In this document: piece after piece, positions 12,283 through 31,711 of the stretch
How positions within the stretch are numbered: position 1 is the first letter of the stretch
Layout: each line of letters opens with the position of its first letter
Virus record (IMG/VR): IMGVR_UViG_3300023278_000857
Location: 1,398-65,397 of that record
DNA from: a virus
Direction: 5' to 3' (one strand)
Length of the DNA stretch: 64,000 nt
Notes under the pieces: model-generated
The model's input: only the letters and a program-made list of their open reading frames with translations
The model's database searches: none
What the model was told of the DNA's origin: nothing
Program-made: the position numbers and the translations under genes

Positions 12283-13023
12283 ATGGCAAAACGTGATGAA
12301 TTAATTAAAGAAATCGAACTTCGCTTAGGCGGACAAATGGTAGACGTAGAGCTCGACCCAGAGCACTACGATCTTTCCATTCGCAAAGCATTGGAAAAAT
12401 ATAGACAGCGTAGTGAAAACGCTGTTGAAGAAAGCTTCATTACATTAGACTTAGTAGTTGATGTTGCGGACTATACTTTACCTGATGAAGTTATAGACGT
12501 TTATACCATTTACAGACGAGCAAGTGGCACACTTAATGGTAGTGGTGGTGCTGATATGGAACCATTTGAAGCAGCTTACTTAAACAATTACCTACTACAC
12601 GGCGGTAGAGCTGGTGGACTAGCAACTTTTGATGCGCTATCACAACATCGTGAAACACTTGGACGTATTTTTGGTAAAGAGCTATTATTTACTTGGAACA
12701 CTGTTAGCAAAAAAATAACAATTCATCGTAGAAACAAAGCGGCTGATACTGTATACTTACATACCTACAAACAGCGTAGTGAAGAAGAATTACTTACTGA
12801 CACATATGCTATGCCATGGATTAAAGAACTAGCACTAGCATACAGTAAATTAATGTTAGCTGAAGCTCGTGGTAAGTTTAACACTATTGCTGGCCCACAA
12901 GGTGGTACAAGCCTTAATGCTGACGCACTACGTAGTGATGCGCAAATGGCAATTGATAAACTAGACGATGAGCTAAAAACTTATACTGACGGTCAAGCAG
13001 GTCTTGGCATAATTATTGGTTGA
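12283..13023 (+). CDS. gp13: T4 gp13-like neck protein
   Basis: IELRLGGQMVDVELDPEH, WIKELALAYSK...RGKF, GGTSLN motifs. Confidence 0.7.
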   Translation: MAKRDELIKEIELRLGGQMVDVELDPEHYDLSIRKALEKYRQRSENAVEESFITLDLVVDVADYTLPDEVIDVYTIYRRASGTLNGSGGADMEPFEAAYLNNYLLHGGRAGGLATFDALSQHRETLGRIFGKELLFTWNTVSKKITIHRRNKAADTVYLHTYKQRSEEELLTDTYAMPWIKELALAYSKLMLAEARGKFNTIAGPQGGTSLNADALRSDAQMAIDKLDDELKTYTDGQAGLGIIIG

Positions 13024-27963: not shown

Positions 27964-28248
27964 ATGAAACTATCAGATTTTAAAAAAATGGAAACACGTC
28001 CTGGATCTTTCCAGACAATACTACAGTTTGGAGACCAAATAGAACTGTCAGTTATTAGCGGAGACGGATCTTATTCCAGTATTGATGCTCCATATGAAAT
28101 CGCAGTATTTCGCAACGGTGAGTTTACTCAGTTTCCAGGTATTACAGGCCCAGACGATGATGTTCGTGGACATCTAGTTGAACAGGATGTTGATTTGGTT
28201 ATTAAGAAACTTGTTACTGTAACTAAAGCCGATCCTGTACAAGTATAA
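27964..28248 (+). CDS. Hypothetical early protein
   Basis: GGAGG upstream; probable start 27964. Confidence 0.65.
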   Translation: MKLSDFKKMETRPGSFQTILQFGDQIELSVISGDGSYSSIDAPYEIAVFRNGEFTQFPGITGPDDDVRGHLVEQDVDLVIKKLVTVTKADPVQV

Positions 28249-28273
28249 AGTAAACTAAAAACAATAGAATTAA

Positions 28274-28350
28274 GGTTCCTTAGCACAGCTGGATAGTGCA
28301 GCCGCCTTCTAAGCGGCAGGTCATAGGTTCGAATCCTATAGGGACCACCA
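28274..28350 (+). tRNA. tRNA-Arg(UCU)
   Basis: Cloverleaf, anticodon arm GCCGC-CTTCTAA-GCGGC, TTCGAAT T-loop, encoded CCA. Confidence 0.92.
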
Positions 28351-28357
28351 GAATACA

Positions 28358-28441
28358 CCTAGTGATGATAAATGGGGAATCTCAGCGCTCATAACGCTTC
28401 GTCGTAAGACCGAGTTGGTTCGATTCCAACCGCTAGGACCA
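28358..28441 (+). tRNA. Atypical tRNA with CAU anticodon (Met or Ile2) and long variable arm
   Basis: CCTAGTG/CGCTAGG acceptor, AGCG-CTCATAA-CGCT, variable arm GTC-GTAA-GAC, T-arm GTTGG/CCAAC, ACCA. Confidence 0.75.
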
Positions 28442-28488
28442 ATAATCTGTTACGCAGTGGTTTTAAGTTCGAATAGATAAATAACTAT

Positions 28489-28926
28489 ATGAACAAATGT
28501 AACCACTGCGAAGCAGACACAAACAACCCAAAGTTTTGTAGCAAATCTTGTGCTGCAAAATATAATAACAAAGGTGTTAGACGGCACGGCAAAGATCCTA
28601 TTAAGTGTGTAGTATGTAATACAGAAACACGCAATAAGAAATTTTGTAGTAGTAAGTGTTCAGGCTCTGTTAGGAAAAAAGATCCTAAACTAATAGCCGC
28701 AAGTAATGCCGCAAGGCAAGCACGTTACAGAGCAAAGTATGGATATAATAGAGCATATGCCAAAGACGCCAATAAAGAAGTGATGAAGATGATATATGAG
28801 AATTGTCCAGTGGGACACGAAGTAGACCATATTATGCCATTGTCAAAAGGCGGACTACACCACGAAGATAATCTACAATATCTTACTGTAAAAGAAAATA
28901 GGAAAAAAGGTAATAGTACTCCTTAA
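28489..28926 (+). mobile_element. Free-standing HNH endonuclease gene 1 in the tRNA island
   Basis: Two CxxC...FCSxxC Zn repeats, then HEVDHIMPLSKGG...NLQYLT..EN. Confidence 0.8.
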
Positions 28927-28929
28927 GAG

Positions 28930-29100
28930 TACCAAAAGACGTGTTGGGTAGCACCAGCTAGTATGGGTTAGCAAATCCCATATGACGAGAAGTGATGTTG
29001 CAGTCACAACAAAAGGCTCGATGAAAGTATTCCGGCATGTGTTTGTCGTTAGCGTGGATAGGCGGAGCGAAAGCGTTGAGAACCTCCCACGCATACACAG
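28930..29100 (+). ncRNA. Unclassified structured RNA candidate in the tRNA island
   Basis: Stacked hairpins TATGGG/CCCATA, GTGA/TCAC, GCGTGG/CCACGC with a GC-GAAA-GC tetraloop; no plausible ORF on this strand. Confidence 0.45.
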
Positions 29101-29112
29101 AAATTAGATACT

Positions 29113-29197
29113 GCCCGCGTGATGGAATGGTAGACATAACAGACTTAAAATCTGTGGCCTTCAAGGCGTGTCGGTTCGAGTCCGACCGCGGGTACCA
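29113..29197 (+). tRNA. tRNA-Leu(UAA)
   Basis: ACAGA-CTTAAAA-TCTGT, long variable arm, A73-CCA. Confidence 0.92.
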
Positions 29198-29202
29198 AAA
29201 AT

Positions 29203-29293
29203 GGAAGTGAGACTTGGTAGTCAGAGGAGTCTTATAAGCTCTTTGCGCCAGATTAGCGCCTTTGAGGTGGTTCGAATCCACCCACTTCTACCA
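29203..29293 (+). tRNA. tRNA-Ile(UAU) with long variable arm
   Basis: GGAAGTG/CACTTCT acceptor, GGAGT-CTTATAA-GCTCT, variable arm GCGC-CAGATTA-GCGC, T-arm, ACCA. Confidence 0.8.
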
Positions 29294-29314
29294 ATTTAAA
29301 CGACAGACGAATAG

Positions 29315-29343
29315 TTGACAGACACTAAATAAACTGTTATAAT
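29315..29343 (+). promoter_or_regulatory. Consensus sigma70 promoter within the tRNA island
   Basis: TTGACA-17bp-TATAAT. Confidence 0.8.
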
Positions 29344-29398
29344 AAACAAGTAAGCAAAGACGTTTACAACGCTATTTAAGATTTAAGAAACTAAATGT

Positions 29399-29473
29399 TC
29401 CGACGTAGCTCAGCGGTAGAGCAGTTGACTGTTAATCAATTGGTCGTAGGTTCGATCCCTACCGTCGGAGCCA
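29399..29473 (+). tRNA. tRNA-Asn(GUU)
   Basis: TTGA-CTGTTAA-TCAA anticodon arm, G73-CCA. Confidence 0.92.
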
Positions 29474-29479
29474 AAATAA

Positions 29480-29570
29480 GGAGAGTTGGCCGAGTGGCTT
29501 AAGGCACCCGATTACTAATCGGACGAACGTTAATAGCGTTCCGTGGGTTCGAATCCCACACTCTCTGCCA
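29480..29570 (+). tRNA. tRNA-Ser with ACU anticodon
   Basis: GGAGAGT/ACTCTCT acceptor, G73, long variable arm, CCGA-TTACTAA-TCGG (anticodon 29514-29516). Confidence 0.85.
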
Positions 29571-29584
29571 TAATAAATAAGTAC

Positions 29585-29662
29585 ATGGTTAATAAATGTC
29601 CTGAATGTAAATTTGAATTGGATCATAATGATTTTTGTCCAATTTGTAGAGTAAAAAGATAA
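29585..29662 (+). CDS. 25-aa CxxC...CxxC zinc-ribbon micropeptide (absent from ORF track)
   Basis: MVNKCPECKFELDHNDFCPICRVKR*; preceded by ATAAATA-N5-ATG. Confidence 0.55.
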   Translation: MVNKCPECKFELDHNDFCPICRVKR

Positions 29663-29707
29663 CGCCGCAATAGATGGTTTAGTTTTGCTCAACTAATAGA
29701 GCAAATT

Positions 29708-29737
29708 TTGCTTAAAAGGATAAATACTTTTGAGCAA
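29708..29737 (+). promoter_or_regulatory. Hairpin with late promoter GATAAATA in its loop, just upstream of the HNH2 RBS
   Basis: TTGCTTAAAAG-GATAAATA-CTTTTGAGCAA then GGGAGA and ATG29749. Confidence 0.65.
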
Positions 29738-29748
29738 GGGAGACACCA

Positions 29749-30255
29749 ATGTTTAAATGCGGTGAATGTAAAAAAGAATATGCTACCCAAAGAGCGTTGA
29801 ACGCACATATGGTAGCACATAAAGAAGGAAGTAGATATAGCGTTAGCAGAGCAGGACCTATAAAAACATTTATATGTCTACACTGTGGAAATGAAAACAA
29901 ATGGTCACACTCGACTAAGAATAAATTTTGTAATTTAGAGTGCCAACATAGTTTCCAACATAACGAACACATTCGTAGTTGGAAGGAAACAGGTAAACTA
30001 AGCAAAGGACCAGTTAAGCGTTACTTGGCAGAACAAGTAAGTGGATGCTGGGAGTGCGGAATTACTGAGTGGAACCAAAAGCCAATTGTGTTAGAATTAG
30101 AACACAAAGATGGCAATTCAGAAAATAACGCTGAAGATAATCTAAGTTTGTTATGTCCTAACTGTCATAGTCAGACATCAACATACAAGGGTAGAAATAA
30201 AGGAAACGGACGACATAGTAGAATGAAACGCTATTATGAAGGACAAAGTTTCTAA
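29749..30255 (+). mobile_element. Free-standing HNH endonuclease gene 2
   Basis: C2H2 finger, FCNLEC, CWECG...LELEHKDGNSENN...NLSLLCPNCH. Confidence 0.85.
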
Positions 30256-30330
30256 GCTGATGTGGCCCAATGGTAAGGCAACTGATTTGTAATCAGTAGA
30301 TTGGGAGTTCGATCCTCTCCATCAGCACCA
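30256..30330 (+). tRNA. tRNA-Thr(UGU)
   Basis: ACTGA-TTTGTAA-TCAGT; starts at the base right after the HNH2 stop codon. Confidence 0.92.
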
Positions 30331-30337
30331 TTAATAT

Positions 30338-30359
30338 GCGCCTGTGGTGAAATTGGTAG
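30338..30359 (+). pseudogene. 5' fragment of a split tRNA-Leu
   Basis: GCGCCTGTGGTGAAATTGGTAG (acceptor 5' strand and D-arm); pairs with CAGGCGC at 31161-31167. Confidence 0.8.
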
Positions 30360-30404
30360 GTAAAACAAATATGCGTTTGTCTACCAACTTAGATAAATAA
30401 CTGT

Positions 30405-31031
30405 ATGAACAATACAGATATACCATTAGGAAAACTTTGCGATAGCGGCTGTGGACAACAGGCACAGTATTTTAGTAAAGACACAGGAAGATATAGGTGT
30501 CTTAAAAGTGCTAACAGTTGTCCTGCTAATAAAGCAAAGAATAGCAAAGGCTTAAAGAAAGCCCACGCTGAAGGAAGAATACCCGTCTTTACAGACGAAA
30601 TGCGTGAGAAATCACATATTAGTCATAGGCGCAAATTAGTAGAAGAGAAACCTTTTGAGGATCTTGGACACATATTGCGGAAAAAGATTGTACTGGAAGA
30701 ACAAGACTACAAGTGCTTACATTGCAATTTAGATGAATGGATGGGGTTGCGTATAACATTAGAGTTGGATCATATCGATGGCAACAATAAAAATAATGTT
30801 AGAAGCAATTTAAGATGCCTTTGCCCTAACTGCCATAGTATTACAGATACTTGGAAAGTAGGAAATATCAAAGGCAAAAACACAAGGAAGCGTAGCGATG
30901 AAGAAATCATCGCTGCCTTTAAGAAGTGTAGTAGTATGAATGCTACATTAAAGGAATTAGGTTATAACTGGGGTAGTGCTGGTACTGTAAAAAAAGTACT
31001 ATTCCAATATAAACTAATAGAAAGTATTTAG
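30405..31031 (+). mobile_element. Free-standing HNH endonuclease gene 3, inserted within the split tRNA-Leu
   Basis: CLHCNLDEW...LELDHIDGNNKNN...NLRCLCPNCH; C-terminal HTH-like tail. Confidence 0.85.
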
Positions 31032-31035
31032 GTAT

Positions 31036-31120
31036 GCGGGTGTGGCGAAATTGGTAACCGCATCACGTTTAGGTCGTGACGCCGCAAGGCTTGGGGGTTC
31101 GAGTCCCTTCACCCGTACCA
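31036..31120 (+). tRNA. tRNA-Leu(UAG), putative replacement copy
   Basis: TCACG-TTTAGGT-CGTGA, long variable arm, A73-CCA; 4 nt after the HNH3 stop. Confidence 0.92.
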
Positions 31121-31130
31121 AATATAAAGG

Positions 31131-31171
31131 TGCTTTACGGCGTGGGGGTTCAAGTCCCTCCAGGCGCACCA
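31131..31171 (+). pseudogene. 3' fragment of the split tRNA-Leu (variable arm, T-arm, acceptor 3' strand, CCA)
   Basis: TGCTTTACGGCGTGGGGGTTCAAGTCCCTCCAGGCGCACCA. Confidence 0.8.
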
Positions 31172-31260
31172 TATAAAGGGTTTTGTTCCCCTTGTAAAAC
31201 AATTGAGCAAATGGTGCCCAGGATGTCCTAAGCAGGACCCAAAACTGCTTACACTAATTC

Positions 31261-31345
31261 GTCAATGCGGGTTTGCTAACAGTAACAGACACTACAGGCG
31301 TCATGTCAACTACTGCGGTAAGGTTCGACTCCTTAATTGACACCA
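31261..31345 (+). ncRNA. tRNA-like RNA with a 6-bp acceptor stem and no canonical anticodon arm
   Basis: GTCAAT/ATTGAC plus ACCA, T-arm TAAGG-TTCGACT-CCTTA, D-like stem GTTTG/CAGAC. Confidence 0.55.
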
Positions 31346-31351
31346 AGACAA

Positions 31352-31427
31352 TGGAAAGTAGATCAATTGGTAGATCATTTGTTTTTGGTACAAAAGGTTG
31401 AAGGTTCGAGTCCTTCCTTTCCAGCCA
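31352..31427 (+). tRNA. tRNA-Gln(UUG)
   Basis: U1-A72, G2-C71, G3-C70 and G73 Gln identity elements; TTTGT-TTTTGGT-ACAAA. Confidence 0.88.
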
Positions 31428-31456
31428 AAGTTATAAAAATATAAAGGAAAAATAAA

Positions 31457-31711
31457 ATGGATATTATTTTAATTGCAGTAATCCTCTCGGGCCTAGTAGG
31501 TTACTGGGCAAACAACTGGGGGCGCAATGGCTGGCTTTGGTTTGCTGCTTCGTTACTAGTATCATCACTAATCACAGCAATTGTGTTGTTCTTTATGGGC
31601 AGAGATGGTGCCGCAAAAGAAGAAAAAGAAGCACAAGAGATTGAAGCAGAAGCACAGAAATCTGCTGCTATCGAGAAACGTAAATCAGAATTAATGAAGG
31701 ATAAAAAATGA
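31457..31711 (+). CDS. Small membrane protein
   Basis: Two hydrophobic helices plus a charged tail; AAGGA RBS. Confidence 0.7.
   Translation: MDIILIAVILSGLVGYWANNWGRNGWLWFAASLLVSSLITAIVLFFMGRDGAAKEEKEAQEIEAEAQKSAAIEKRKSELMKDKK

Follow-up and report, generated by a model that had tools for sequence, protein, structure and literature searches.

A candidate homing cassette nested in a phage tRNA-Leu(UAG) gene: a free-standing HNH endonuclease gene with a spare copy of its target

How might a nuclease gene lodge inside a conserved gene without splicing, and what becomes of the gene it occupies? Homing endonucleases are thought to persist in conserved genes only by way of introns or inteins, or else between genes with long flanking homology. 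The question is raised by a locus in IMG/VR record IMGVR_UViG_3300023278_000857, of which the 64,000 nucleotides (nt) at positions 1,398 to 65,397 were analyzed and are called the window here. In this locus an HNH endonuclease gene, HNH3, and an intact transfer RNA (tRNA) gene, tRNA-Leu(UAG), lie between two pieces of another tRNA-Leu(UAG) gene, all on the plus strand. An initial annotation had proposed that a selfish HNH gene, together with a substitute tRNA-Leu, broke the resident gene, in a way comparable to the intronless homing of T4 SegB. The analysis below supports that proposal, and the locus is probably a free-standing HNH homing-endonuclease cassette nested in the resident tRNA-Leu(UAG), whose flanking target pieces would serve as homology arms and whose cargo would replace the destroyed gene.

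The 5′ piece (30338-30359) holds positions 1-22 of the resident tRNA, that is, the 5′ strand of the acceptor stem, the 5′ strand of the D-stem and the D-loop. Its exact 22-mer was present in 32 IMG/VR contigs, and in 29 of these it formed the start (22/22) of an intact 85-nt tRNA-Leu(UAG); relatives with the unbroken GCGCCTG...CAGGCGC gene, for which the initial annotation had suggested a search, were thus found. A tRNA-Thr(UGU) lay upstream of the 22-mer in 24 contigs, with a gap of 4-7 nt in 16 of them, as in the window, where 7 nt separate the 5′ piece from a tRNA-Thr(UGU) at 30256-30330 (ARAGORN; Rfam, 69.1 bits). The 3′ piece (31131-31171) holds positions 45-85, comprising the variable arm, the T-arm, the 3′ strand of the acceptor stem, A73 and CCA; in 18 of the 29 contigs the intact gene ends in exactly these letters (41/41). 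By BLAST, 31130-31173 was 100% identical to the relatives L001 and L012. The resident gene therefore lacks exactly 22 nt (positions 23-44; the 3′ strand of the D-stem and the entire anticodon arm), in whose place stands an insert of 771 nt (30360-31130), delimited by comparison with L012, L134 and L038. The acceptor halves GCGCCTG and CAGGCGC are perfectly complementary. On all of these points, namely the two pieces, the paired acceptor strands, the lost anticodon arm and the contents of the gap, the initial annotation was borne out.

The site also exists without the insert. In L012, BLAST placed only 21 nt between the flanks homologous to those of the window, where the corresponding distance is 770 nt; identity between the two was 84% from tRNA-Thr to the 5′ piece, 100% in the 3′ piece and 85% in the element downstream. 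Presence and absence are thus polymorphic, with L012 empty and 29 contigs carrying the intact allele with no HNH gene inside it. Two further genes begin with the same 22-mer. At ~12735-12841 (minus strand) of L023 and at 5739-5845 of L030 it opens a gene resembling tRNA-Leu(UAA), with ~33 nt interrupting the anticodon loop; ARAGORN made no call for either gene, and the interruption may be a short intervening sequence or a sign of a damaged gene.

Within the insert, an intact tRNA-Leu(UAG) occupies 31036-31120 (ARAGORN; Rfam, 50.5 bits). ARAGORN and Rfam called this inner tRNA-Leu only and neither of the outer pieces. It shares the anticodon UAG with the resident and is otherwise divergent from it (59/85 identical; 18/22, 11/22 and 30/41 by segment), the deleted resident segment being the one that differs most from the cargo (11/22; D-stem and anticodon stem). 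Taken together, these alignments show that the resident gene was destroyed and that a predicted tRNA with the same anticodon is supplied. By its letters the cargo is an ordinary allele elsewhere: L036 has a tRNA-Leu 84/85 identical to it after a tRNA-Thr, with no HNH gene. The cargo tRNAs of the HNH3 clade all deviate from the resident D-loop/D-stem sequence, each in a different way. Such deviation is what immunity to the enzyme would require, and it is suggestive of immunity, not proof. Another type of cargo follows the HNH stop codon in L037 (1472-1548), L047 and L053; it is 77 nt long, has anticodon UAG and a tRNA-Leu-like D-arm, and its variable arm is only 4-5 nt.

The surroundings of HNH3 relatives (420 at E ≤ 0.001) were collected by exact look-up, from IMG/VR and from JGI metagenomes. 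In L134 the HNH protein was 97% identical to HNH3, the cargo tRNA was identical and the spacer that follows it nearly so; in L038-L043 the HNH protein was 98% identical. The window matched L134 and L038 at 94-96% nucleotide identity only from ~30336-30345 to ~31125-31157, and the flanks beyond were unrelated. Judged by these shared limits, the unit of HNH gene and tRNA is mobile. In L134 and L038 the HNH gene keeps its cargo tRNA and spacer within unrelated flanks, which amounts to co-conversion as seen by comparison, not from crosses. The attachment to tRNA-Leu extends well beyond these loci. In all 19 close-clade loci (69-97% identity) with downstream sequence, a tRNA-Leu(UAG) started -10 to +18 nt from the HNH stop codon, and 28 of 40 full-length relatives (identity down to 31%) abutted a tRNA-Leu with anticodon UAG, UAA or CAA. 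Several other loci of those 40 abutted a tRNA-Leu(UAA) that resembles a gene interrupted by a group I intron and received no ARAGORN call. The distant HNH relatives of L061, L063, L072 and L153 (35-46% identity) lie directly upstream of such a tRNA-Leu(UAA), with the intron apparently in the anticodon loop, and the HNH3 family may also associate with intron-bearing targets or cargoes.

In nearly every close relative a tRNA-Leu start ending in the D-loop lay upstream, followed by the conserved leader, and in many loci a tRNA-Leu end lay downstream of the cargo tRNA. We curated 11 loci with both pieces for an acceptor-pairing test. All 11 had distinct 5′ acceptor sequences. The halves paired 7/7 in 8 of the 11 loci, compared with 3.6% of cross-locus pairs (permutation p ≤ 5e-5). 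Because one of the eight, L152, has matching halves around an HNH gene only 45% identical to HNH3 and a tRNA-Leu(UAA), the nested architecture is old or recurrent in the family. A search of IMG/VR for an intact allele matching the resident pieces of L135 (GCCCTTA type) found none. The proposal of a selfish HNH gene thus draws support from empty sites (L012, L001 and others), from the same unit in unrelated flanks (L134, L038) and from 11 alleles with matching architecture.

Other loci display later stages or rearrangements. The 3′ pieces of L140, L143, L144 and L149 were eroded, with remnants shortened to 26, 14 or 9 nt, and the HNH gene of L037 was truncated at its 5′ end. In L038 and L138 the tRNA is chimeric, a mark of crossovers within it: the 3′ acceptor strand of the L038 cargo pairs perfectly with the stranded 5′ piece and not with its own 5′ end, and L138 is a nested case with a third allele in between. 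We also observed 'mini' tRNA-Leu remnants in L145 (~1660-1770) and L148 (~1900-1960), in which the 5′ acceptor strand is fused directly to the variable arm, the T-arm and a perfectly matching 3′ acceptor strand. L145 has a tandem pair of them, each with AACAYA in front. Such remnants may have been left behind when a cassette was lost, or may be small tRNA-like RNAs.

HNH3 (30405-31031; 208 amino acids) has its own start and stop codons and is situated between RNA genes. It matched PHROG HNH endonuclease families with E values of 7e-25 and 1e-24. In alignments of 34 and 53 relatives, C104, C107, H123, N135, C140, C143 and H144 were invariant. The residues expected in the catalytic beta-beta-alpha-metal motif of the HNH (His-Me finger) superfamily, a general-base His, a conserved Asn and a metal-ligand His, are therefore all conserved as H123 (in ELDH), N135 and H144 (in CPNCH), and so are the two CxxC pairs (C104/C107 and C140/C143) that bind a structural zinc in its zinc-bearing subgroup; an N-terminal cluster of four cysteines was likewise invariant. 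An AlphaFold2 model (mean predicted local distance difference test score, 82) placed strands at 120-123 and 136-139, followed by a helix at 141-146. Searching PDB sequences with the HNH3 family profile returned nothing meaningful. The ratio of non-synonymous to synonymous polymorphism (pN/pS) against relatives was 0.08-0.24, and HNH3 is under purifying selection; from its sequence, the gene looks functional. No Rfam intron family matched 28000-31700 even at E ≤ 10, which places HNH3 outside a self-splicing intron.

A leader of 45 nt separates the 5′ piece from HNH3, and 4 nt separate HNH3 from the cargo tRNA. The leader contains a box that resembles a T4 late promoter, 5 nt ahead of the HNH start codon (ATAAATA-N5-ATG, 30393-30407). 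Nine such sites occurred in the window versus 0.58 expected, a number reached in none of 100 shuffles, and the box before the HNH gene was conserved in relatives from other genomic contexts. The cassette appears to bring its own late-type start signal, the promoter role of the box being assigned by analogy with T4. The same arrangement precedes HNH1, a second HNH gene of the window (28477-28926; 145 amino acids), whose start region TAGATAAATAACTNTATGAAC, including ATAAATA-N5-ATG, is common to HNH3. The inverted repeat pointed out in the initial annotation is real and longer than described there. It spans 30350-30390, with 15-nt arms (30350-30364 and 30376-30390) that are 80% complementary and 11 nt apart, one arm in the D-loop of the 5′ piece and the other a leader copy, GTCTACCAAyTT. 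This inverted D-loop sequence just upstream of the promoter-like box was conserved in 14 close relatives. It may form a hairpin, bind a protein or be no more than a scar. Lying beside the box, it could be a putative operator for self-repression of the nuclease; I-TevI reportedly represses its own gene.

The right end of the cassette is a 10-nt spacer (31121-31130), with counterparts of 8-17 nt that end just before the start of the variable arm of the 3′ piece in L134, L135, L136, L137, L141 and L151. The initial annotation had remarked that the spacer after the cargo repeats the sequence after the 3′ piece. The repeat ATATAAAGG is indeed present at 31122 and 31171, but it is not general, and the sequence after the 3′ piece differs in relatives from that in the window. 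Its 8-mer is not enriched either, TATAAAGG having 4 copies in the window versus 3.5 expected. A target-site duplication was ruled out on these two grounds, and the repeated spacer is probably not part of the mechanism.

We propose the following course of events. The mobile unit consists of the leader, the HNH gene, a complete spare tRNA-Leu(UAG) and the short spacer, and lies between target positions 22 and 45. During mixed infection the enzyme, whose gene probably uses its own ATAAATA-N5-ATG start for late expression, would cut an unoccupied tRNA-Leu gene in or near the region from D-loop to anticodon arm. The cargo tRNA, which differs most from the target in this region, would be spared. At the break, both ends would anneal to the donor's flanking pieces through the conserved sequences of D-arm and T-arm, and repair would copy in leader, HNH gene, spare tRNA and spacer. 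The recipient's outermost acceptor sequences would survive, which would account for halves that match within each allele, and the cassette could enter a tRNA-Leu gene in any genomic context because the target pieces would travel with it. An intron-borne endonuclease owes such independence to its exons and relies on splicing, whereas function would be restored here by the spare gene. The initial annotation's 'toxin-antidote' wording is only an analogy for this arrangement.

Several points weigh against this proposal. We infer from sequence that HNH3 cuts the intact allele and spares its cargo, and place the cut site from the position of the insert only. The homology arms within the pieces are short (22 and 41 nt). 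In two of the 11 curated loci, L134 and L137, the halves mismatch, possibly through a crossover beyond one piece. Logan contigs of four runs, examined over 30200-31300, contained none with the window's own junctions and only those of L038-type and L134-type. The Pfam HNH_3 match to HNH3 (E = 0.005) fell under the cut-off, and Foldseek against PDB gave nothing at E ≤ 0.001; its local matches of ~60 residues were to HNH domains only (TagI, McrA and Cap5; probability 0.93-0.99), all with E > 0.04. Consensus folding of the leader in the 14 close relatives found no pair with compensatory change. The hairpin therefore lacks covariation support, and a structural role for this leader, conserved by sequence, is unsupported.

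These points leave room for other explanations. The cargo tRNA itself might be the selected part, a variant tRNA-Leu(UAG) that escapes a host tRNA-cleaving defence, with the nuclease tolerated or favored for spreading or amplifying it. The concentration of differences from the resident in the D-stem and anticodon stem would suit this idea, as would the report that a tRNA-cleaving defence is overcome when SegB amplifies a phage tRNA (PMC13096335). We consider it unlikely, given that no defence cutting tRNA-Leu(UAG) was linked to these phages in the data analyzed and that one HNH clade carries several unlike cargo tRNAs, among them the 77-nt form whose variable arm is short, a pattern that hitch-hiking fits better than a single adaptive allele does. 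It is in any case compatible with a homing cassette and does not exclude one, and nothing in the data calls for it. A single illegitimate recombination might instead have dropped a foreign HNH-plus-tRNA segment into the tRNA-Leu as a dead end, the nuclease being irrelevant to spread. Neither window junction has obvious homology with the lost 22 nt, and the window's exact arrangement was in none of the four Logan runs, as an accident would have it. Such an event would not have yielded the same junction positions and leader in many independent assemblies and 11 resident alleles, nor an HNH gene under purifying selection, and a one-off origin seems quite improbable to us.

The remaining doubts concern whether the broken gene is broken, or real. 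Short-read assemblers break or mis-join at repeats such as tRNA genes, many of the relatives are ~1-kb contigs ending in tRNA sequence, and the window's own junctions are without read-level support, so reads from phages with different tRNA-Leu alleles might have been joined by error. Nested loci with both pieces were nevertheless recovered in separate ENA and JGI assemblies (L044-L046, L135, L136, L137, L141, L142, L054 and L140), and in two marine runs the L134 form has its right-hand junction spanned by Logan contigs, which makes an artefact very improbable. We give still less credence to a functional tRNA, split or interrupted by an intron, with its halves joined as RNA, an outcome that would have overturned the initial proposal. 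The perfect complementarity of the acceptor halves would accord with joining, as would the tRNA-Leu(UAA) genes, seemingly interrupted by a group I intron, that adjoin some distant HNH relatives. However, the pieces contain neither the D-stem 3′ strand nor any of the anticodon arm, so joining them cannot yield a tRNA-Leu; no intron family matched the region, and the 3′ piece erodes to 9-26 nt in relatives, as expected for a remnant. Splicing of the halves is excluded on these grounds. Two specific forms of it were considered and rejected: an endonuclease encoded in a tRNA-Leu group I intron, for which there was no Intron_gpI match and where removal of the insert would leave a gene 22 nt short and without its anticodon arm, and split tRNA genes of the Nanoarchaeum type, since positions 23-44 are in neither piece.

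A homing cassette nested in its target can be set beside several known systems. T4 SegB recognizes a tRNA T-arm motif and spreads itself together with neighboring tRNA genes (PMC2330249), and SegB amplification of tRNA-Tyr has been reported under Septu (PMC13096335). Like the window cassette as proposed here, it is a free-standing nuclease gene among phage tRNA genes with a conserved tRNA-gene motif as its recognition site (PMC2330249; PMC13096335), and it spreads with neighboring tRNA genes at the expense of the recipient's tRNA region. SegB is, however, a GIY-YIG and not an HNH enzyme, is located between tRNA genes and depends on long homologous flanks; no split target surrounds it, and it is not nested inside the gene it replaces. 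The HNH genes F-TflI and F-TflII, as well as F-TflIV, of the T5 tRNA region are cited in PMC2330249. The cultured T4-like coliphage OE5505 has, 6 nt upstream of a tRNA-Leu(UAA), an HNH gene that shares 47-48% identity with HNH3 in residues 91-190 and has no target pieces visible around it; some records of genes of this type are labelled 'F-TflIV', which is the annotator's name. These enzymes share HNH3's nuclease superfamily and an adjoining tRNA-Leu, whereas no nesting with a spare gene has been described for them.

The closest match in layout is provided by the mobile open reading frames (mORFs) of fungal mitochondria, which enter conserved genes carrying a foreign replacement for the C-terminal end (Allomyces atp6; Glomus atp6, atp9, cox2 and nad3; PMC3630166). 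This is a resemblance of layout only. In both cases a divergent replacement sits beside the nuclease reading frame and a native part is kept downstream, nearly identical to uninvaded relatives; in the window the retained pieces match intact alleles at 100%, and the cargo is 59/85 identical. The mORFs differ in that they invade protein-coding organelle genes and replace the 3′ end only, yielding a hybrid gene, whereas the window cassette supplies a complete RNA gene and has target pieces on both sides. Fractured genes, in which a free-standing endonuclease lies between gene halves with a split intein (PMC2677866), are similar in that the endonuclease brings its own control elements. Their rescue is by protein trans-splicing, whereas the halves in the window are dead and the spare gene would do the work. 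Integrase-driven elements use tRNA genes as insertion sites, where their own attachment site rebuilds the 3′ end of the gene. They thus resemble the window locus in inserting into a tRNA gene, in leaving a partial tRNA copy at the border and in keeping the gene functional by the element's own sequence. Unlike them, the window cassette has no integrase, brings a whole tRNA gene, has deleted 22 nt of its target and is only 771 nt long. No description of a cassette that unites an HNH gene with a spare tRNA inside a tRNA gene was found in a literature search, which left most subscription journals uncovered and is not proof of absence.

The host record is that of an uncultured myovirus (72.6 kb; ~20% complete by estimate) with genes for a tail sheath, a large terminase, a ribonucleotide reductase and a DnaB-like helicase. 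The locus is contained in a tRNA array (28274-31427) with three HNH genes interspersed among the tRNA genes. When 28200-31500 was compared with cultured phages by megablast, only single tRNAs matched, and the locus was in no cultured relative. HNH1 lies between an odd 84-nt tRNA-Met call, to which the Rfam tRNA-Sec model gave only 17.5 bits, and a 186-nt unannotated stretch that precedes a tRNA-Leu(UAA). HNH2 (29749-30330 region; 168 amino acids, with an N-terminal C2H2-like finger) has a stop codon that abuts G1 of the tRNA-Thr(UGU). In more than half of 23 unrelated loci with relatives of HNH2 (45-53% identity), a tRNA-Thr starts 0-12 nt downstream of the match, and HNH2 thus resembles a sister cassette associated with tRNA-Thr; no tRNA-Thr remnant was seen upstream of it in the window. 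Just upstream of HNH2, a 25-codon open reading frame (29585-29662) with an ATAAATA-N5-ATG start encodes CPEC...ELDH...CPIC and reads like a shrunken HNH/zinc-ribbon remnant. The array also has two unusual tRNAs, at 29203-29293 and 29480-29570: a 91-nt tRNA with a long variable arm and anticodon UAU, called as Ile and scored by Rfam only as tRNA-Sec-like (31 bits), and a tRNA-Ser with anticodon ACU. Both types recur in relatives (UAU in L010, L011 and L013; ACU in L002, L004 and L032).

After the 3′ piece lies a conserved non-coding element of ~174 nt (31173-31346), always found downstream of tRNA-Leu(UAG) and 94% identical in L141, 93.5% in L036 and 85% in L012. Its end resembles a T-arm, an acceptor strand and ACCA. 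ARAGORN made no call for it, Rfam gave a weak YrlA-like match (18 bits), and its predicted fold (31173-31350) was no more stable than those of shuffled sequences (z = -0.35). In the tRNA array of L037, a GC-rich and apparently structured stretch of ~450 nt (370-830) lies between tRNA-Arg and tRNA-Ala, and similar 'filler' sequences recur after tRNA-Leu in L036 and L141.

The cassette would be a third solution to the problem of persisting in conserved genes: the nuclease gene stands inside a conserved gene, turns the ends of the gene it broke into homology arms and makes up for the loss by bringing a spare copy. On balance we lean somewhat towards a distinct class of homing element, one that is independent of splicing and nested in a gene, that carries target pieces as portable homology arms along with a complete spare target gene, whose HNH subfamilies are each tied to one tRNA identity (Leu; Thr for HNH2), and that is widespread in uncultured phages. 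Intact target, occupied site and presumed immune allele are all known in sequence. For annotation, the finding is a warning that tRNA fragments beside HNH genes would be scars of invasion and not assembly noise. Such elements would explain why HNH genes are so often joined to the 5′ end of tRNA genes, why tRNA fragments and chimeric tRNAs are common in phage tRNA arrays, and how tRNA alleles move between unrelated phages.

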